Source: an uncultured Alphaproteobacteria bacterium (lineage in GTDB: Bacteria; Pseudomonadota; Alphaproteobacteria; Rs-D84). Taken from it: DNA of 64,000 nt. Under the pieces are notes generated by a model, which was given only the letters and a program-made list of their open reading frames with translations, made no database searches and was not told the origin of the DNA. The translations under genes and the position numbers were made by a program. The stretch lies in the NCBI GenBank assembly GCA_944389465.1, contig CALXML010000003.1, positions 20,369 to 84,368 of the forward strand, in the 5' to 3' direction. Below are positions 4,282 to 39,013 of this stretch, one piece after another; the stretch's first letter is position 1, and each line of letters opens with the position of its first letter.

Positions 4282-4287
4282 ATTTTT

Positions 4288-4436
4288 AAATAAATGCTGA
4301 AAATAAACCACCGATTATTATCGGTGTTTTTATTTGTTCGCAAATCCCAGATTTCTGGGATTTTTTTTATTTCACTGCGTGCCGAAATAAATCGGTGGGT
4401 TTGTTCAGGCAGAACATTATCAGAGAGAAACAAAAA
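4288..4436 (+). promoter_or_regulatory. Type-2 conserved 5' leader, copy 1 (two tandem terminator-like hairpins)
   Basis: Hairpins CCACCGAT/ATCGGTG+T5 (4318-4341) and AATCCCA/TGGGATT+T8 (4352-4378). A distal ATCGGTGGGTT (4401-4411) repeats the 3' arm. About 80% identical to the reverse complement of 34442..34568. Confidence 0.55.
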
Positions 4437-13953: not shown

Positions 13954-16461
13954 ATGAAAATAAAGTACATAATTGGTTCTGTTGTTGGATTGGCGGCGTT
14001 GGTGGTGGCACTGGATTCATATGGGTTAACCACGTCCAGTTCAAAACGTCAATCTGCGATACAGCAGGGGACAACCGTCCGTACCAAGGTAGAGGCAACC
14101 GGATTATATGACCAAGCATGTTATGATGCTTATTTTGGTTGTATGGACCAATTTTGTATAACTGATAATGCCAGTGGTGGTGCGTGTAACTGCAGCGATA
14201 CTGTTTTGGAATATAACGAAGAATTGGCGTCTATTGAAAGTATTTTGGACGAAGCAAATCGTCTGCGCACAGAAGAGATTGAACGTGTCAAGGCTGGTGC
14301 AGATGCTGATATTATTTTTACTGGGGAACGTCGCTATGACGCAGATGGCAATATTCTGGCCGAAGACGAATTAACCGAAGAAGAGGAAAAAGAAAAACGG
14401 CGTGCAGATTTATTGGCGATATTTAATACCAGCATATATTCCGAAGACCCCTTTGAAGAACAAAGTACTGTTGGCAGTATGGCTGATATGATGGGGGCGG
14501 AATTGTATAATGCTGCAAATGAATTATGTATGGCACAGGTGCCGGATTCTTGCGCGGGGGATATTGCTTTTCTGCAACAATTATATTCACGTCAAATAAC
14601 ATCTGATTGTTTGGGGTATAAAAATTCACTGGCCCAGCAACGCGCAAATGCAGAAAATGAATTGGCCGCCGCTGAATCCGAAGTGCGCACCGCATTAAAG
14701 GAGAGTTTTGAAAGTGCCAACAAATATGATTTGGGCCAATGTATGGTTGAATTTAGAAATTGTATGCAGACAGAAGATGCCTGTGGCGAAGATTGGGAAA
14801 ATTGCGTGATGACCGTCGCGTCTGAAAATATGCAGAATAACGAGGCCACCAGTACCGCTGGCACAACGGTTGAAACTGTTGATACATATGATATAACGGC
14901 GTCAACAATGGAAATGTTAAACGCCAAACGTCCAATTTGTGAAAATGTTTTGGACCAATGTGTGGCGGTGCGTGACCAAGTGTGGCCTAATTTCCTGCGC
15001 GAAGCCGCCCCAACAATCAAGGTGGCGGAAAGTATTGTTGAATCAAAATTCCGTCAATCGTGTTTAACTGATATTTCTGAATGTATTCAAACAGCGTGTC
15101 GTGATGATATCGCAGGCAAGGGCGTTGCCACAATGGACGCCTGTTTGTCGCGTCCGGAAATGGCACGCAGTTTTTGCAAGGTTGAAATTGACCCCTGTGA
15201 ACGTATGGAACCACTGATTTGGGGGTATGTAGAAGATAAGTTGGCCGCAATGCGTGTTGATGCCTGTACACAAGAGGTCAAAGATTGCTTTACGGCCGAT
15301 ACCCGCTGTGGGCCAAACTTTGAAAACTGTATCGGTATGGATTATGAATATATCCATGATATTTGCCCGATTGACAGTTTGGTTGTGTGCAAGGCGAATA
15401 ATCCTGCATTTTCCATGGATGATTTGGATGATATGCTGATGGGATTATATTTGAATATTGATAATGCCATGATGGAACAGTGCCAGAATATTGTGGATAA
15501 GAAAATGGCCGAGGTTTGTGGCAGTACATCGGATTGTAACCGTTTCGCAGCCGATGATACAATTGGTACTGGGTCTTTGCGCAGTCAAAAGGATGGCACA
15601 ACATACCGTGTTACGGGTATGATATCTTTTGGCAGCCTTAAGATGGGTGACAGTGATGGCGAAACTGTTTCTGATGGTGATGGTGGTACAATGCGAATTG
15701 GCCCCGGTGAAATCGCAATTGGTGATTATTTGGAAAAAATCCGCGAACGTAATGCCGGTGTTGATAATGCCGAAGGGATAATTTCTTCTATTGAAGAAGA
15801 ATTGAACAATATTGCGGGGACTATTAATCGCACTATTGAAATGATTGAACAAGACCCTGAAATTCAATACTGTGTTAATGGGCGTGATTTGTCGCAAATT
15901 ACCGGTGATGCAGGCGATAAAACCAGTGGGCGTTTCCCGAACCTGTTAAATCAGGTTAAAATGCAAATTGCTGTTTCTGCATTGCGACAGGCACAGGATA
16001 ATTATAACAATAAATTAAATCACGAAATTGCCGAAGCCACCAAAAATGCATCTGCTGATTTGGCGCAATATATGTGCCAGAAAATTGCTGAAAATGGTGG
16101 GGCAGGTGGCGGTGATATAAATGCGTCAACACCGTTGGCCGCGCCATATGCAATCAGTTACGATGTGGGGTCGGGGCTGACAACCGAAGATTTGGCATCC
16201 GGTGGTGCGGGCGTTCTGCAGGCGGATGGTGTGACATTTACGAACAGTGGCTATCTGGGCGGGTCCAGTTTTAATGGGGGCGGTATGACCAAAACTGTGC
16301 GTGCAATATTCAGCCGTGAAACCAGAACATGTCATATCTGTACACAAACTGTTACCCAGAATTGTAAAACCACGGGCAGCAGCAGTTGGTTCCACAACAG
16401 CAGAAATACCAGCTGTACGACCGAGGCATCAGACGAGGTTTGTGAAGACATCGTGATGTAA
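13954..16461 (+). CDS. Giant secreted Cys-rich protein, CMDQFC family (paralog 3, 835 aa)
   Basis: RBS GGAGAG; N-terminal hydrophobic signal; core ACYDAYFGCMDQFC at 14119-14157; ends ...EVCEDIVM. Confidence 0.8.
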   Translation: MKIKYIIGSVVGLAALVVALDSYGLTTSSSKRQSAIQQGTTVRTKVEATGLYDQACYDAYFGCMDQFCITDNASGGACNCSDTVLEYNEELASIESILDEANRLRTEEIERVKAGADADIIFTGERRYDADGNILAEDELTEEEEKEKRRADLLAIFNTSIYSEDPFEEQSTVGSMADMMGAELYNAANELCMAQVPDSCAGDIAFLQQLYSRQITSDCLGYKNSLAQQRANAENELAAAESEVRTALKESFESANKYDLGQCMVEFRNCMQTEDACGEDWENCVMTVASENMQNNEATSTAGTTVETVDTYDITASTMEMLNAKRPICENVLDQCVAVRDQVWPNFLREAAPTIKVAESIVESKFRQSCLTDISECIQTACRDDIAGKGVATMDACLSRPEMARSFCKVEIDPCERMEPLIWGYVEDKLAAMRVDACTQEVKDCFTADTRCGPNFENCIGMDYEYIHDICPIDSLVVCKANNPAFSMDDLDDMLMGLYLNIDNAMMEQCQNIVDKKMAEVCGSTSDCNRFAADDTIGTGSLRSQKDGTTYRVTGMISFGSLKMGDSDGETVSDGDGGTMRIGPGEIAIGDYLEKIRERNAGVDNAEGIISSIEEELNNIAGTINRTIEMIEQDPEIQYCVNGRDLSQITGDAGDKTSGRFPNLLNQVKMQIAVSALRQAQDNYNNKLNHEIAEATKNASADLAQYMCQKIAENGGAGGGDINASTPLAAPYAISYDVGSGLTTEDLASGGAGVLQADGVTFTNSGYLGGSSFNGGGMTKTVRAIFSRETRTCHICTQTVTQNCKTTGSSSWFHNSRNTSCTTEASDEVCEDIVM

Positions 16462-17390: not shown

Positions 17391-17837
17391 TTAGTCAGAT
17401 AAATTGGAAAATAATGCATTCCTAATGGTATTATCAACACCACCGCATACTCTGGCACACTGGTTTATACACGCAGCATAAGTTGTTGATGAACTATAAG
17501 GCGGCCTAACCCATTGCGAAACTGCCGGACTTATCATTTTACACCAACAGTATTTATTAGAACTTGTGATTGATGAATTAACACTTATGTTTTCTAATAC
17601 ATCGCCTGCTTGGCCTTCATTCGCGGCACATACACCGACACCGACCAAATCAACAGTTGTTGTTCCTGTATTACACGTTGCATACCAGTCAATTGCGCCA
17701 CCAGTTCCTAGACTGATAGCGGTATTATTTTCGCATGAAACAATATTGTCCCCAAATGCCACACATTTGGTGACGGCAATGGCCGGTGGGATTGTGGCCA
17801 CACAAATCAGGCCGGCAATTAATAAATGTTTTTTCAT
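17391..17837 (-). CDS. P1-family small secreted Cys protein (copy a)
   Basis: Start at MKKHLLIAGLICVATIPPAIA (RBS GGAGA). Conserved NKYCWCKMISPAVSQWV and C-terminal FSNLSD. Paralogs at 19984..20400 and 37837..38289. Confidence 0.75.
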   Translation of the reverse strand: MKKHLLIAGLICVATIPPAIAVTKCVAFGDNIVSCENNTAISLGTGGAIDWYATCNTGTTTVDLVGVGVCAANEGQAGDVLENISVNSSITSSNKYCWCKMISPAVSQWVRPPYSSSTTYAACINQCARVCGGVDNTIRNALFSNLSD

Positions 17838-18046
17838 ATTCTTATCTCCATTTTCTTTTGTTTTTGAATAAAGAAAAACCACCAGAAATATTCAGGTGGT
17901 TGGAGTTTAAGAACAATCCAATAAATTGCGTGTTTTATTCTGTATATTCAACACACTCCAACCATTATGGTTGGATTAGTTTTTCGTCCGTATCACAGAC
18001 GTATTGGATGGGTTCTTAAGCCCAATATGTGAACACCACATATCGC
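17838..18046 (-). promoter_or_regulatory. Type-1 structured 5' leader, copy A (subtype II), upstream of P1a/P2a
   Basis: Promoter TTGATT (18079-18074), 16-nt spacer, TAATAA (18057-18052). Helices: TTAAGAAC/GTTCTTAA, TCCAACC/GGTTGGA, GTGTGTT/AACACGC, CAAT/ATTG. Terminator CCACC/GGTGG plus a U-run (17874-17899). Confidence 0.65.
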
Positions 18047-18865: not shown

Positions 18866-19699
18866 ATGACTTGGACAATCTTGGTTCTGGTGATTGGTAT
18901 TCTGTTGTTCCTGTTTGGTGGTATGTTGCTGCCAAAGGGCGATGAAAAGAAACCATCCGCTGGAAAAATCGTTGCAAAAAAATGCATCACTGTAATTGCT
19001 ATTATCCTGATTTCAGGCAGTATATGCCGTTTGTATATGCCATATTACCTGACCGCTGTTAATCCAGTAATCGTTCAGGAAATGGTCAACGGTATGCAGG
19101 AACAGCAACAGGCCGAAAAAAACAAACAAATTCGTAAATTTGTCCGTTCCGAAGGCGACAAAATGATGCGTGATGCCCCAGTTTTGGGTAATCGCGATGC
19201 GAAAAAGACAATTTATGTTTGGACAGACTTCTCTTGCCCATTCTGCCGTCGTGTACATGGTGAAATTGAACGCGTATTGGCCGACCGTGACGATACACGC
19301 GTAGTTATCAAGAATTTCTCTATCCACGGGCCATTGTCTGATGCACCGGCCAAGGCTGTGATTGCTGCAAAGTTGCAAGACCCAGCAAAGGCTGCTGAAT
19401 TGACAAATATGTTGATGACACGTGAATTTTACACCCAAGAAGATTTGCAAGACCAATCCACATTGGCGGACAAGGTTGAAGCAAACGTTATGAAAATGGC
19501 CAAAGAAGCCGGCTTGGATACTGAAAAGTTGAAAGAAGACATGAACGGCGATGTTGTTGCACGTGAAATGCGTGACGTTCGTGATTTGGCACAACGCTTT
19601 GAAATCAGCGGTACACCATTCTTAATCATTGGTGAACAGGCTTTTCCGGGCGCAATCCCAGCCGACCAAATAGAGGCTGCATTGGATGAAGCAAAATAA
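18866..19699 (+). CDS. Membrane-anchored DsbA-family thiol:disulfide oxidoreductase
   Basis: N-terminal TM helix; thioredoxin-fold active site FSCPFCRRVH; C-terminal ISGTPFLIIG. Confidence 0.8.
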   Translation: MTWTILVLVIGILLFLFGGMLLPKGDEKKPSAGKIVAKKCITVIAIILISGSICRLYMPYYLTAVNPVIVQEMVNGMQEQQQAEKNKQIRKFVRSEGDKMMRDAPVLGNRDAKKTIYVWTDFSCPFCRRVHGEIERVLADRDDTRVVIKNFSIHGPLSDAPAKAVIAAKLQDPAKAAELTNMLMTREFYTQEDLQDQSTLADKVEANVMKMAKEAGLDTEKLKEDMNGDVVAREMRDVRDLAQRFEISGTPFLIIGEQAFPGAIPADQIEAALDEAK

Positions 19700-19717
19700 A
19701 TTATTCATCTGATTTAT

Positions 19718-19749
19718 AAAAAAGTCCCACCAAATGGTGGGACTTTTTT
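19718..19749 (+). terminator. Intrinsic terminator
   Basis: GTCCCACC-aaat-GGTGGGAC followed by T6. Confidence 0.8.
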
Positions 19750-19785
19750 ATGGAAATATATATTTTTATAAAGTATAATTTTTGT

Positions 19786-19983
19786 CGTATCAGTGATATT
19801 GCTGATATGGGGTGTCGAAACCCGTCTAAACTGTCCGCGACGACATAAAACTATATCTCCAACTGTTTTGGTTGGAGGGTTGTGAATATACTGAATAAAC
19901 AACACTATGTTTAGATAGTTTCGAACCTCCAACCACCTTAAATTCGGTGGTTTTTTCATTCGCAATGAAAAAGGAGGTTTAGA
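19786..19983 (+). promoter_or_regulatory. Type-1 structured 5' leader, copy B (subtype I), upstream of P1b/P2b
   Basis: -10 TATAAT at 19774-19779. Helices: TATCAG/CTGATA, TCGAAAC/GTTTCGA, CTCCAAC/GTTGGAG, GTTGT/ACAAC, ACTAT/ATAGT. Terminator AACCACC/GGTGGTT plus T6 (19931-19956). Confidence 0.65.
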
Positions 19984-20400
19984 ATGAAAAAACATTTATT
20001 AATTGCCGGCCTGATTTGCGTGGCCACAATCCCATCGGCCGTGGCCGTGACCAAATGCGTAAAACTGTCATCTTCATCAACGTGTTCCAATTATGCGGGC
20101 GATGGGTCAAATTGGTCAATAACATGTGACGGAGTGCCTGTAAGCGGTGTTATATTTTGTGGCTCGCAGGATGGTGGTTCACGGGGTGCAACATCCACCG
20201 CTGTCGCAATCAGTTCAACCATTGAGGACAACAAATATTGCTGGTGTAAAATGACATCACCCGCAGTGTCGCAATGGGTCTTCGTCAACGAGTTAACGTC
20301 AGCCAGTCAATGCAAAACACTTTGCACATTCAACTGTGCGTATGGCACTCAATCCCAAGCATCTATGCGGTCTGCGATGTTCAGCAATCTGTCTGACTAA
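19984..20400 (+). CDS. P1-family small secreted Cys protein (copy b)
   Basis: MKKHLLIAGLICVATIPSAVA signal; NKYCWCKMTSPAVSQWV; C-terminal FSNLSD; RBS AAGGAGG. Confidence 0.8.
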   Translation: MKKHLLIAGLICVATIPSAVAVTKCVKLSSSSTCSNYAGDGSNWSITCDGVPVSGVIFCGSQDGGSRGATSTAVAISSTIEDNKYCWCKMTSPAVSQWVFVNELTSASQCKTLCTFNCAYGTQSQASMRSAMFSNLSD

Positions 20401-24251: not shown

Positions 24252-24276
24252 AAAGCGGGGCGTTGCCCCGTTTTTT
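24252..24276. terminator. Bidirectional terminator (CGGGGC family)
   Basis: AAAAG-CGGGGC-gtt-GCCCCG-T6. Confidence 0.8.
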
Positions 24277-24802
24277 ATGATTGATAGTAACAGTTACTGT
24301 CATATACGCCGGAACCGGTGCTGTCTGAAAAGGATGTGCCCGCCGGTATATAACATGTTGTTATACTAAAACTGCCGGTGGTGGCCGTGGTTGCGGCGGA
24401 ATGGCCTGTTGCCGTGGCACAACTGGTGCATTTGCCTGAAAGGCTATTAAGGCTGTAATATCCCTTGTCGCAGGAATATTGACATGTGGCAAGTGTCCCA
24501 CTTTTTACGCATCGTACTGTGTAATGGCCGGATTCGCTGTGGGTCGGTGTTGTGCTGGGGCAGGCGGACGGGCAACTGGGGCCCCCACCGCCAGTGCTTT
24601 GACAAGTGCATACTGCGGTTGGGGTTTGGCCACTGGGGCATGTCAGTCCACTGCAGTTACATGTTTTACATGACCCGTCCGGATTATATGTCGCGCACGG
24701 ATATGGTGGCGTGCATAGAACAGAAGGATAGGTTATTGCATCGGCCGGCATTGTTTGTATAAGAACCGCTGTCAGTGCGGTAATAATTGTTATTGGTTTC
24801 AT
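24275..24802 (-). CDS. Secreted cysteine-rich protein with a C-terminal GYY...CxxC...CYIP...CYY module
   Basis: Signal peptide MKPITIITALTAVLIQTMPADA; RBS GGGGA; C-terminus CDKGYYSLNSLSGKCTSC...TTCYIPAGTSFSDSTGSGVYDSNCYYQS. Confidence 0.75.
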   Translation of the reverse strand: MKPITIITALTAVLIQTMPADAITYPSVLCTPPYPCATYNPDGSCKTCNCSGLTCPSGQTPTAVCTCQSTGGGGPSCPSACPSTTPTHSESGHYTVRCVKSGTLATCQYSCDKGYYSLNSLSGKCTSCATATGHSAATTATTGSFSITTCYIPAGTSFSDSTGSGVYDSNCYYQS

Positions 24803-25182
24803 GATTTTTATTCCCCATGGTTTAATATGTTAAACCGCCCGTCGTAAATTTTTTACGACAAGCAAAAACCGCCATCATCGGGCGGTCGGGAATTTGAAAA
24901 ATCATAAGCAAAAATGACCCTGCGGCTTTCAATATATAACCGCAGATTCCCGACCTTTTACAAAAGTCGGGTGGATAAAGCATACGGCAATCAATGGCCA
25001 TGTGGCTTTATCATGGATATGTCAGTGCGGTTGCGCACTGTTTGCTTATGGGATTTTCAAGTCCCTGAATCCAACGTCCCCGTTGATTCATATTTAAGTA
25101 TAGTTTATGTTGGTTATAAAAACAATAAAAACATTGTGTGACCGCATTTGTTAGCCGTGCGGCACGGCTGGTTACCCCCCCT

Positions 25183-27233: not shown

Positions 27234-27280
27234 ATCACAAATTTATGGTAAATGGAAAACTTTTCATATATAATGTATGG

Positions 27281-27475
27281 CGTATCGGTGTGTTGCCGGT
27301 ATGTGGTGTCACAACCCGTCAAAACGCGTTTCGCATATGCGAAATGAAAAAAATCTCCAACATTGGTTGGAGGGTGCTGAATAACCAATAAAGCACACTA
27401 TTCGTTTTGATAGTTGTGAACCTCCAACCCACCTGAAAAAATTTTTCTGGTGGTTTTTTATTATGGGGGAAAATT
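27281..27475 (+). promoter_or_regulatory. Type-1 structured 5' leader, copy C (subtype I), upstream of XRE regulator 1
   Basis: -10 TATAAT at 27269-27274. Helices: ATCGG/CCGGT, TCACAAC/GTTGTGA, TTTCGCAT/ATGCGAAA, CTCCAAC/GTTGGAG, GTGCT/AGCAC, ACTAT/ATAGT. Terminator CCACC/GGTGG plus T6 (27428-27459). Confidence 0.65.
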
Positions 27476-27826
27476 ATGGTTGGAATAAAGCACCAGATGT
27501 GTGAATTTGATATTAATGCCGGACGAATTATTGCAATGCTGCGTATGCGTATGGGATTAAGCCAGCAGGATTTGGGTAAAAAATTGGGTGTTACTTTTCA
27601 GCAAATTCAAAAATATGAATGTGGCGAAAACAGATTAACCGCCGCACGATTAAATGATATTTGCCGTGTGTTTGAAATATCGCCGGCCGCATTTTATGAC
27701 AATGTTAACCTGCCATATGTTCATGATAAATGTATGATGGATTTAATAAATACTGTTTATAAATTACCAACTGGCCAGCGCAAGATTATTTTGCAAATCG
27801 CCACGGCATTCCATTTGGCGGGCTAA
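27476..27826 (+). CDS. XRE-family helix-turn-helix transcriptional regulator (116 aa)
   Basis: GLSQQDLGKKLGVTFQQIQKYECGENRLTAARLNDICRVFEISPAAF is a canonical HTH_XRE pattern; RBS GGGGGA. Confidence 0.8.
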   Translation: MVGIKHQMCEFDINAGRIIAMLRMRMGLSQQDLGKKLGVTFQQIQKYECGENRLTAARLNDICRVFEISPAAFYDNVNLPYVHDKCMMDLINTVYKLPTGQRKIILQIATAFHLAG

Positions 27827-30232: not shown

Positions 30233-31339
<1,107 letters not shown>

Positions 31340-37836: not shown

Positions 37837-38289
37837 TTAGTCCGACAGTTGACTAATCATATTTGGTAAAAATTGTGGAAAATTTGATTTGAAGTTCAAT
37901 CCATCACGGCACGCAGTGGCACAATTGTTTATGCACATGCCATTGGATGGGAAAGAGGATGCATACACCCATTGTGATACGGCGGGGGATGTCATTTTAC
38001 ACCAGCAATATTTATTGTCATCCGCCGTACCACTGCTGGTCAGGGTGACAGACAGGGTGGCGGACAATTTGCCGGCAGTGTCACCGTTTTGTGATGAACA
38101 GGCGGCAATGCCACTGACTGTTGTTGGGCCACCACGCATTGAACAACTGCCGGACCAGTCCAGATTTCCACTTTGTGCATCAATATTGCATGTCATACTG
38201 GTGTTTAATGCCACACATTTGGTGACGGCCGCGGCGGGCGGAATTATGGCCACGCACAGCAGGCCGGCGATTAATAAATGTTTTTTCAT
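37837..38289 (-). CDS. P1-family small secreted Cys protein (copy c)
   Basis: Start at MKKHLLIAGLLCVAIIPPAAA; NKYCWCKMTSPAVSQWV; C-terminal ISQLSD; RBS GGGAGA. Confidence 0.8.
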   Translation of the reverse strand: MKKHLLIAGLLCVAIIPPAAAVTKCVALNTSMTCNIDAQSGNLDWSGSCSMRGGPTTVSGIAACSSQNGDTAGKLSATLSVTLTSSGTADDNKYCWCKMTSPAVSQWVYASSFPSNGMCINNCATACRDGLNFKSNFPQFLPNMISQLSD

Positions 38290-38495
38290 ATTCTTATCTC
38301 CCTTTTTCATTTTATTGATATGAAAAAACCACCAGAATTTTCGGGTGGTTGGAGTTTAAGAACAATTGAGTGAATTGCGTGGCTTATTCAATATATTCAC
38401 CACACTCCAACCGCTATGGTTGGATTTATTTTTTACGTCCGTTCCCAGACGCACCCAATGGGTTCTTAAGCCCAATGTGGAAACACCCCACATCA
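38290..38495 (-). promoter_or_regulatory. Type-1 structured 5' leader, copy D (subtype II), upstream of P1c/P2c
   Basis: Promoter TTGATT (38528-38523), 16-nt spacer, TATTAT (38506-38501). Helices: ATGTGG/CCACAT, TTAAGAAC/GTTCTTAA, CGTCTG/CGGACG, TCCAACC/GGTTGGA, GTGTGG/CCACGC, CAATT/AATTG. Terminator CCACC/GGTGG plus a U-run. Confidence 0.65.
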
Positions 38496-38603
38496 AATTA
38501 ATAATATCATACGCGTGGGGTAAATCAACATAAATAGTTTGGCGGGCGGTTGGGGGTACCAGTTAACCATTTGCAATTTTATGTGCGTATGTTATAATTA
38601 ATG

Positions 38604-38785
38604 GTCATTGGATGATTACCAATGTGGGGTGTAAGAACCTCTTCTTCGTGCGAACTCCAACACGGGTTGGAGGGTCGTGATATATTTGAATAAGCGACAC
38701 TATTTACGAAGAATAGTTCTTAACCTCCAACCGCCTTTCATCACGGCGGTATTTTTGTTTAATAAAGCAAATTTGGGGGGATAAA
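38604..38785 (+). promoter_or_regulatory. Type-1 structured 5' leader, copy E (subtype I), upstream of XRE regulator 2
   Basis: Promoter TTGCAA (38571-38576), 16-nt spacer, TATAAT (38593-38598). Helices: CATTGG/CCAATG, TAAGAAC/GTTCTTA, CTCCAAC/GTTGGAG, GTCGT/GCGAC, ACTAT/ATAGT. Terminator ACCGCC/GGCGGT plus a T-run (38730-38756). Confidence 0.65.
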
Positions 38786-39013
38786 ATGACAGTAATATTA
38801 TTTGATTCACGCGTGTTGGGCACTGCAATGGCGCATGGACGTAAAAATGCACGCCTGCGCCGTGGTGATGCGGCACGAATGTTAAAAATACAATATAAAA
38901 CATTACGAAAATATGAACAGGGCCAACAAATGATACCAGATGCAATACTGGAAAAATTACTGACATATGGATTTACATTGCTGTACGCCAAACGTACTGA
39001 TTTAAAGCAATAG
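38786..39013 (+). CDS. XRE-family helix-turn-helix regulator (75 aa)
   Basis: ...RRGDAARMLKIQYKTLRKYEQGQQMIPDAILEKLL... HTH pattern; RBS GGGGGGA. Confidence 0.7.
   Translation: MTVILFDSRVLGTAMAHGRKNARLRRGDAARMLKIQYKTLRKYEQGQQMIPDAILEKLLTYGFTLLYAKRTDLKQ

Follow-up and report, generated by a model that had tools for sequence, protein, structure and literature searches.

The window considered here, i.e., the whole 64-kb stretch of DNA that was analysed, is ordinary chromosome encoding RecO, ribosomal protein L9, PGK, RNase HII, ClpX, and a ClpB-like ATPase, together with an SLT transglycosylase, a DsbA-like protein, and an N6 methylase of the CcrM-like type that carries a RAMA domain and fits an alphaproteobacterium. 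Scattered among the housekeeping genes are six units, each of them a single gene, in which the same parts follow one another in the same order: first a sigma70-like promoter, then a 5' hairpin and a domain of several helices, next an intrinsic terminator, and finally a Shine-Dalgarno site and the gene itself. The leaders of these units are about 170 nt long, and their copies will be designated c1 to c6.

Copies c2 (19784-19956, from approximately the transcription start to the U-run of the terminator), c3 (27279-27459), and c5 (38602-38756) lie on the plus strand and score 152.7, 120.7, and 94.4 bits, respectively, with the covariance model R1 described below; c2 also scores 146.8 bits with model R2. 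Copies c1 (17873-18046) and c4 (38323-38497) lie on the minus strand and score 161.8 and 157.3 bits with R1, and c4 is transcribed divergently from c5, a short form that has no P4 helix. An earlier note on this DNA, made from its letters alone, had reported five copies of the leader, and all five are where it placed them: each of two conserved core patterns has exactly five matches in the window, where chance would give 0.06 and 0.54. The count itself has to be raised to six, since covariance model R2 revealed a divergent subtype, c6, at 24864-25087 on the minus strand (46.2 bits, E = 4e-10). Another weak model match, at 4286-4415 on the minus strand, was set aside as what looks like an unrelated hairpin pair plus terminator, and a generic scan of the window for further leaders with a three-element logic returned the known copies and one coincidence within a coding sequence.

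Four of the regulated genes encode cysteine-rich proteins. The c2 gene (19984-20400, plus strand) specifies a 138-aa protein with a signal peptide and no Pfam or NCBIfam family, and paralogs of it follow c1 (148 aa, 17391-17837, minus strand) and c4 (150 aa, 37837-38289, minus strand), while the c6 gene (24275-24802, minus strand) codes for a secreted protein of 175 aa. The remaining two genes encode XRE helix-turn-helix proteins, namely one of 116 aa after c3 (27476-27826, plus strand; HTH_3, E = 2e-11) and one of 75 aa after c5 (38786-39013, plus strand), whose HTH_31 match (E = 4.7e-5, 24.0 bits) falls under Pfam's cutoff of 27 bits. The terminator ends about 17-36 nt before the start codon, with just about 17 nt at c3, rather than the 25-45 nt given in the earlier note. 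The c2 promoter (19751-19779, plus strand), located with a consensus scan, matches at 10 of 12 positions and consists of a -35 box TGGAAA, a 17-nt spacer, and a -10 box TATAAT; in the homologs too, a -10-like box lies about 8 nt 5' of the first hairpin.

From 5' to 3', the leader comprises the hairpin P0, a G-tract, a long stem P2-P3 with a CC bulge, a junction, a distal tract CCUCCAACC, and the terminator, and the junction carries the optional P4, an AAA linker, P5 (CUCCAAC/GUUGGAG), and P6 with its loop GAAUA..AAUAA. In c2, whose fold has a z score of -5.7 relative to shuffled sequences, all of these parts are on the plus strand. P0 (CGTATCAG / CTGATATG) occupies positions 19786-19809 and is followed, within 19809-19823, by the G-tract 'a' (GGGG), a 2-nt spacer, the P2 5' strand TCGAAAC (19815-19821), and a C-tract 'b' (CCC). 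The 5' strand of P3, GTCTAAAC (19824-19831), has its partner, GTTTAGAT, at 19909-19916. Between them come the P4 hairpin TGTC...GACA (19832-19845), which is missing in c5 and in other short forms, the P5 hairpin CTCCAAC / GTTGGAG (19857-19877), which we propose as an anti-antiterminator, and the P6 hairpin GTTGT / ACAAC with its conserved loop GAAUAUACUGAAUAA (19879-19903). The stretch 19905-19924 then holds the 5' arm CTAT of a further local helix, H7, the P3 3' strand, the H7 3' arm ATAG, and the P2 3' strand GTTTCGA (19918-19924).

The distal C-tract CCTCCAACC (19926-19934) overlaps the 5' arm of the terminator, AACCACC...GGTGGTT followed by the U-run (19931-19956; a terminator scan places the stem-loop at 19931-19952, then the T's). 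It is also the predicted 3' strand of the antiterminator, whose 5' strand GGTTGGAGG (19870-19878) extends the 3' arm of P5 by one nucleotide, K. Four copies have the terminator stem CCACC/GGTGG, and the fifth has CCGCC/GGCGG. In c6, P5 is CCCGAC/GTCGGG and the antiterminator GGTCGGGAAT/ATTCCCGACC, and its minimum-energy fold has the same architecture as the other copies. The helices described in the earlier note, i.e., P0, P2, P5, P6, the terminator, and the GGAGG:CCTCC versus GGAGT:ACTCC alternative, are all present, but the second long-range helix, P3, had been overlooked, and the ACTAT/ATAGT hairpin, which does exist, overlaps the 3' strand of P3.

The helices were assessed on homologs. A scan of species-representative genomes returned true homologs in two MAGs, one of an uncultured Rickettsiales and one of an uncultured Alphaproteobacteria, and a metagenome scan with the pattern GGTTGGAGKGTNNTGAN{30,58}CTCCAACC returned 78 loci, several of which are labelled as human gut metagenome and several of which share one contig. 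Plain MAFFT alignment of all sequences followed by RNAalifold was discarded, as it misaligned the hypervariable helices and returned only P0, a local G/C hairpin, and the antiterminator; for this reason a curated seed was built from 20 sequences whose alignment agreed with the structure, and its six helices were annotated to give model R1. Covariance-model searches of the kind suggested in the earlier note recovered 91 homologs (R1 matches at E < 1e-5, 83 of them distinct) and, with the second model, R2, copy c6. In most homologs, GGUUGGAG and CUCCAACC are invariant because the search pattern requires them, so that these positions can be judged from only some 10 pattern-independent sequences; among the R1 matches, several are second copies in retrieved loci, which lie outside the pattern and are therefore free of its bias. 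On one contig, the promoter-plus-leader regions of paralogous helix-turn-helix genes are nearly identical (L026, L037, L039, L062, and L065). Gene calls sometimes run through the leader, as in the 128-aa call P0002.

Across the 83 distinct homologs, standard pairs fill 95.4% of the alignment cells, compared with 77.2% after shuffling, and 31 of 38 pairs have compensatory changes on both sides, in an alignment that was fitted to the proposed structure, which favours that structure, and that contains kin sequences, which inflate the cell counts. The covariation score is 0.506 versus 0.166 for shuffled alignments (none of 500 as high) and collapses to 0.03-0.055 when the partners are slid by 1-3 columns. 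RNAalifold, run on this alignment, arrived independently at P2 to P6 and the terminator, and 26 of its 29 pairs are compensatory. That the covariation signal is no artefact of the fitted alignment follows from the slid controls and from the raw anchored counts, and these results bear out the earlier claim of a structured leader RNA with compensatory base changes.

The single helices differ in how freely they vary. The P0 stem is different in nearly every homolog, and its loop has the consensus GNGUU (GUGUU in 28 of 81 sequences); a kissing interaction between this loop and AAUA in the P6 loop was considered and dropped, as the two do not co-vary. P2, the long-range helix TCGAAAC/GTTTCGA of the earlier note, is paired in 99% of cells, shows as many as four pair types at a position, and is found in over 20 distinct Watson-Crick versions. 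The sequence of P3 is different in every copy of the window, and its inner pairs, of which four types occur, are kept in 91-99% of cells. P4 pairs in 98% of cells and P6 in 95%, and all pairs of both (4 of 4 and 5 of 5, respectively) have changed on both sides. P5 pairs in 97% of cells; its 5' arm varies via G-U pairs and co-varies in divergent homologs. The P6 loop carries an inserted hairpin in some homologs, and conservation reaches at least 94% at its G, A, AUA, and AAUAA positions, the pattern-independent homologs included. Moreover, two local helices covary that overlap the ends of P2 and P3: the helix a:b (GGGG..CCCC around the P2 5' strand) appears also as GAGG/CCUC, GGAG/CUCC, and GGGA/UCCC, and the central pair of H7 (CWAU..AUWG around the P3 3' strand) is U:A in 40 sequences and A:U in 32. 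H7, which overlaps both P3 and P2, may be an alternative pairing or a pseudoknot partner.

Regarding the control of termination, the stem-loop and U-run lie between promoter and start codon on the strand of the gene, and 96% of the terminator-helix cells in the 83 sequences are paired, with A:U/G:C covariation and U-runs visible in the alignment. Part of this terminator would be sequestered by an alternative helix that is itself backed by covariation. The strand GGUUGGAGK is complementary to the distal MCUCCAACC, whose last four bases begin the terminator stem. Among the pattern-selected sequences, K:M is the one antiterminator pair that varies, and the search pattern leaves it free: 62 sequences have G:C, 12 have U:A, and 1 has a mismatch, so that K:M is paired in 74 of 75, a figure reached in none of 2000 shuffles. 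An extension of the antiterminator past 9 bp was rejected, since the next two positions pair at chance level. The alternative helices, taken jointly, have a covariation score of 0.174 versus 0.095 shuffled, and they exceed the slid controls too.

Most telling are the variants in which the three elements, namely both arms of P5 and the distal copy, have changed in concert, as is the case in nine pattern-independent leaders (L081, L011, L002, L006, L074, L043, L067, L064, and c6 of the window). In L081 and L011, the P5 5' arm is CUCCUGA, the 3' arm GGUCAGGAGG, and the distal copy CCUCCUGACC; in L002, the corresponding elements are CUUCCAAU, GGGAUUGGA, and UCCAAUCCC. L074 and L043 have (U)CCCUGACC / CUCCCGA as the 5' arm, GGUCGGGGGG as the 3' arm, and CUCCCCGACC as the distal copy, L006 has UCCCGAU with GGUCGGGGGU and AUCCCCGGCC, and c6 has ACCCGAC with GGUCGGGAAU and AUUCCCGACC; among the divergent homologs, the P5 arms CUCCUGA/UCAGGAG and CCCGAC/GUCGGG go with the distal CCUCCUGACC and UUCCCGACC, respectively. 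Since the three elements change together in homologs that owe nothing to the search pattern, selection must act on both P5 and the antiterminator. At the level of predicted base pairing, these comparisons demonstrate that the P5 and antiterminator pairings are mutually exclusive, and together with the K:M counts they uphold the terminator/antiterminator alternative that had been read from the five copies.

In all five type-1 copies, the full-length minimum-energy fold contains P0, P2-P6, the terminator, and a helix P1 formed by the 5' G-tract with the distal CUCC; this is the fold that we call OFF. Forcing the antiterminator costs 9-17 kcal/mol in the full-length copies. When the leaders are truncated just 5' of the terminator 3' arm, i.e., at the decision point, P5 is still preferred in 71 of 77, but the gap between P5 and the antiterminator narrows to a median of only 4.4 kcal/mol (range -7.8 to +11.9); the energies are in keeping with a switch. 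These energies come from nearest-neighbour, nested models, which ignore pseudoknots and folding kinetics.

Taken as a whole, the comparative evidence makes it highly probable that the element is a structured, cis-acting terminator/antiterminator leader. Each unit would be transcribed from its own sigma70-type promoter into an RNA with two folds. In the OFF fold, P0 would be followed by a coaxial P1-P2-P3 stem that closes the junction with P4, P5, and P6, with the terminator directly downstream. In the ON fold, the P5 3' arm would exchange its 5' arm for the second C-rich copy (CCUCCAACC) and form a helix of 9-10 bp; as this copy overlaps the 5' half of the terminator, the terminator would be blocked and RNA polymerase would read into the gene. 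P5 would thus act as an anti-antiterminator, in a four-segment logic like that of the classical attenuators. The local helices GGGG..CCCC and CWAU..AUWG probably belong to the ON fold or stabilise it; they may be parts of that fold or pseudoknot partners, and P2/P3 and the antiterminator may be mutually exclusive or may coexist as a pseudoknot. Since the OFF fold is the ground state, termination would be the default and an effector would promote read-through, and we infer that switching takes place in vivo, with its balance set by a factor acting in trans.

The leaders precede genes throughout the collection. They always have the same orientation as the downstream ORF, and some 80 of the 91 lead into a start codon with a Shine-Dalgarno site, usually 10-45 nt past the terminator. 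The regulated genes are scattered, roughly one per 10-60 kb. Small XRE helix-turn-helix proteins make up 11-15 of the 72 distinct downstream proteins; most of the others have a signal peptide, are often cysteine-rich, and belong to no Pfam or NCBIfam family, and a few carry EGF/ephrin-receptor-like or Listeria-Bacteroides repeats. The only enzyme-like proteins among the 72 are one glycosyltransferase and one UvrD-like helicase, and no metabolic, transporter, or pathway theme was found among them.

The earlier note had recognised no known class in these leaders and had proposed a comparison with Rfam, and the comparison agrees with it: with the 4227 covariance models of Rfam 15, cmscan at the gathering threshold assigned none of the copies or scanned homologs to a family, the whole window yielding 3 tRNAs only and ten homolog loci one tRNA only. 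A permissive scan of c1, c2, c4, and c5 gave chance-level matches far below threshold. A full-text literature search with the core sequences returned unrelated matches only, and a keyword search of riboswitch-discovery papers and the text of Weinberg 2017 returned nothing relevant. The human-microbiome candidate list of Fremin & Bhatt 2021 contains many HTH-XRE-associated motifs, and the core sequence is absent from 200 of its 408 supplement files, the searchable part; it is possible that the element has already been listed anonymously among these human-microbiome candidates. We class the element as a new family within a known kind, the terminator/antiterminator leader RNAs, and as an orphan riboswitch-like element.

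Its nearest relatives in logic are the three-hairpin attenuators, i.e., the PyrR-controlled pyr leaders (RF00515) and the trp leaders with their 1:2/2:3/3:4 pairings. Like these, the element forms mutually exclusive helices from four segments in a row, would take its decision on the nascent leader before the start codon, and occurs in several leaders per genome under what would be one factor, putative in its case. Unlike the pyr leaders, it has no PyrR binding-loop motif and no Rfam match; unlike trp-type attenuators, it has no leader peptide; and unlike both, it embeds the anti-antiterminator in a much larger covarying junction (P1-P6) and controls secreted proteins and XRE regulators in place of a biosynthetic operon. 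A ribosome-mediated attenuator was rejected because there is no conserved short ORF: an ATG precedes the G-tract in just 28 of 81 sequences, and across the leaders the longest internal ORF ranges down to 0 codons, with a median of 13; in addition, the site lies directly against the P0 hairpin.

T-box leaders (RF00230) share the long structured leader, the choice between terminator and antiterminator, the many copies per genome that constitute a regulon, and a terminator fold that is the default until an external macromolecule allows read-through, as we infer for the element. However, the element has neither the Stem I specifier architecture nor the T-box sequence with its antiterminator bulge, its antiterminator being a continuous, unbulged helix of 9-10 bp whereas that of the T-box is bulged. 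Its genes are unrelated to aminoacyl-tRNA supply, and it occurs in Alphaproteobacteria-like MAGs whereas T-boxes occur in Firmicutes; RF00230 gave no match to c1 or c2 even at E up to 10. Riboswitches with a terminator platform, such as c-di-GMP-I/II, likewise place a conserved multi-helix domain before a terminator with a competing helix, control dozens of scattered single-gene units, and have targets enriched in surface or secreted proteins and regulators. In contrast to them, the element matches no Rfam riboswitch family in sequence or structure, GEMM-I/II included, and its switching strand is an arm of an internal hairpin (P5), whereas in riboswitches it belongs to the closing P1 helix. 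Finally, in ANTAR and BglG/RAT targets termination is the default and a protein stabilises an RNA structure over the terminator 5' arm, which matches the effector model favoured below, but the element lacks the dual hexaloop hairpins and the RAT hairpin of about 29 nt, greatly exceeds these targets in size, and contains long-range helices; neither an ANTAR nor a PRD protein was detected beside the copies.

Several other readings of the same observations have to be weighed against the terminator/antiterminator leader. That the element is a DNA-level repeat without RNA structure, such as a mobile promoter cassette, an operator array, or a protein-coding remnant, could be suggested by its many copies per genome, by the near-identity of the promoter-plus-leader regions at the paralogous helix-turn-helix genes of one contig, and by gene-caller ORFs, such as P0002, that at times extend through it. 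This reading is largely refuted and is given next to no weight, for strands about 100 nt apart keep their pairing through different sequences, the element has no conserved ORF, and it is strand-specific relative to the gene; a scan of viral contigs gave zero matches, and hence there is no sign of a phage origin. An improbable alternative is that the terminated RNA of about 170 nt is the product, as a multi-copy small RNA acting in trans, e.g., via its CCUCC anti-Shine-Dalgarno-like tract, with the position of the gene being secondary. Each unit does have its own promoter and a strong intrinsic terminator, the ground-state fold does end at the terminator, and an exposed C-tract would be complementary to GGAGG-type ribosome-binding sites, but this tract is paired as P1 in the minimum-energy fold, every leader is co-oriented with a downstream ORF whose Shine-Dalgarno site follows at a short distance, and a covarying antiterminator over the terminator would be purposeless in a pure small RNA. 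Just as improbable is a constitutive structured 5' UTR that would serve mRNA stability, processing, or localisation for secreted proteins and would contain a leaky terminator and no switch. The much greater stability of the OFF fold in silico means that the terminator could simply be constitutive or leaky, most of the regulated products are secreted, and P0, as a 5'-terminal hairpin, resembles a known type of mRNA stabiliser; yet the change of both P5 arms in concert with the distal copy presupposes that the alternative pairing is under selection as well, and cytoplasmic XRE regulators bear the same leader.

A true riboswitch, in which the P1-P2-P3 stem, the P4/P5/P6 junction, and the A-rich P6 loop would form an aptamer for a small molecule or an ion, deserves more consideration than these, although we regard it as doubtful. 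A ligand might act by locking P5, to the benefit of termination, or instead by favouring the antiterminator fold. The complex junction with its highly conserved unpaired AAA linker and GA..AUA..AAUAA loop, the expression platform of classical riboswitch type, the optional stems of variable length (P4 and the P6 insert), as in known classes, and the many copies per genome, as with second-messenger riboswitches, all speak for it; covarying helices and conserved junction and loop nucleotides are, however, common to protein-binding leaders as well and thus do not discriminate. The ligands of known riboswitch classes have been inferred from gene themes; the genes regulated here have no transporter, enzyme, or pathway theme, and the RNA needs no ligand to have the OFF fold as its ground state. 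As for c-di-GMP in particular, a crude scan found no R.GG[DE]EF motif, the mark of GGDEF-type cyclases, in 758 long ORFs from 646 kb around the motifs, and as these are fragments of many genomes the argument is a weak one, by which this ligand is weakly disfavoured.

For the terminator/antiterminator leader, which we prefer to these readings, the nature of the effector is the less certain part. A dedicated RNA-binding protein or another global signal is our tentative first choice, falling short of an even chance, and it is ranked slightly above a metabolite, itself no better than a modest prospect, because the regulon has no metabolic theme and consists of scattered genes for secreted cysteine-rich proteins and XRE regulators. 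A trans-acting RNA is less plausible still, as is a leader with no effector at all.

If confirmed, the element would be a well-supported orphan class of bacterial cis-regulatory RNA, with about 90 representatives and compensatory changes in six helices, and would offer rare direct covariation evidence for both states of an expression platform. As both alternative helices covary, it would also be a good natural model of how expression platforms evolve. The leader would provide a handle for annotating the genes behind it as co-regulated, for correcting gene calls that run through it, and for finding the effector, whether ligand or RNA-binding protein. Should the P1-P6 junction with its invariant GAAUA..AAUAA loop be the aptamer of a new riboswitch class sensing a signal molecule, which is conceivable if rather unlikely, uncultured host-associated Alphaproteobacteria would switch a whole cysteine-rich secretome, along with XRE regulators, on and off through it. 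Beyond the identity of the effector, confirmation of the leader would bring to light a large and previously invisible regulon of uncultured gut-associated Alphaproteobacteria, made up of domain-less, cysteine-rich secreted proteins and small XRE regulators.

A divergent sixth copy of the leader, c6, occupies 24864-25087(-), upstream of a gene (24275-24802(-)) encoding a 175-aa cysteine-rich secreted protein. In this copy the anti-antiterminator hairpin P5 reads CCCGAC/GTCGGG, the antiterminator strands are GGTCGGGAAT/ATTCCCGACC, and a big insert lies between P5 and the optional hairpin P4. The same subtype is also found outside the window, at the homologous loci L006, L074, L043, L067, and L064. 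A further covariance-model match, at 4286-4415(-), is weak (22-25 bits) and is made up of a hairpin ATCCCAGAAATCTGGGAT and a second one, CACCGATAATAATCGGTGG, with T's after it, within an A/T-rich intergenic region; it probably falls outside the leader family and represents an unrelated terminator region.

Cysteine-rich secreted products recur downstream of the type-1 leaders, where three small paralogous proteins (17391-17837(-), 19984-20400(+), and 37837-38289(-)) all carry MKKHLLIAGLICVA as their signal peptide and end in SNLSD, and their conserved core reads NKYCWCKM(T/I)SPAVSQWV; they have no family match in Pfam or NCBIfam. Leader c2 (19784-19956(+)) adjoins a DsbA-like gene (18866-19699), a neighbor that fits disulfide-rich secreted products. 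Between this gene and the c2 promoter is a long perfect hairpin flanked by A/T (19713-19754, AAAAAAGTCCCACC...GGTGGGACTTTTTT), which looks like a bidirectional intrinsic terminator and is the cause of the weak Rfam matches to MicC and the Thr leader.

Regarding the other genes of the window, the CcrM-like N6 adenine methyltransferase (30239-31339(+)), which carries a RAMA domain at its C-terminus, supports an alphaproteobacterial origin of this DNA, and an 835-aa ORF (13954-16461(+)) has no Pfam match at E <= 0.01.

Leaders c4 and c5 are divergently transcribed from a common intergenic region of ∼105 bp (38497-38602), with a cysteine-rich secreted protein on one side and a 75-aa XRE regulator, i.e., a small helix-turn-helix protein, on the other. 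The public gene calls for this c5 regulator (38786-39013(+)) come in two lengths, 75 aa and 128 aa (proteins P0002 and P0017-P0019), and the longer one probably extends upstream across the leader RNA; if so, it is an annotation error that arose because the leader element was not recognized. The 75-aa XRE gene (MAKLLIDANYYG...) is present as several paralogs sharing a contig (ERZ777306.17 and Ga0209694_1000017; loci L026, L037, L039, L062, and L065), and a leader precedes every one of them. Since the promoter regions at these loci are also almost identical (…AATAAATTTAAATTCCTTGAACATTCGCG…GATATAAT), the sequences suggest that whole promoter-leader-gene cassettes have recently been duplicated.
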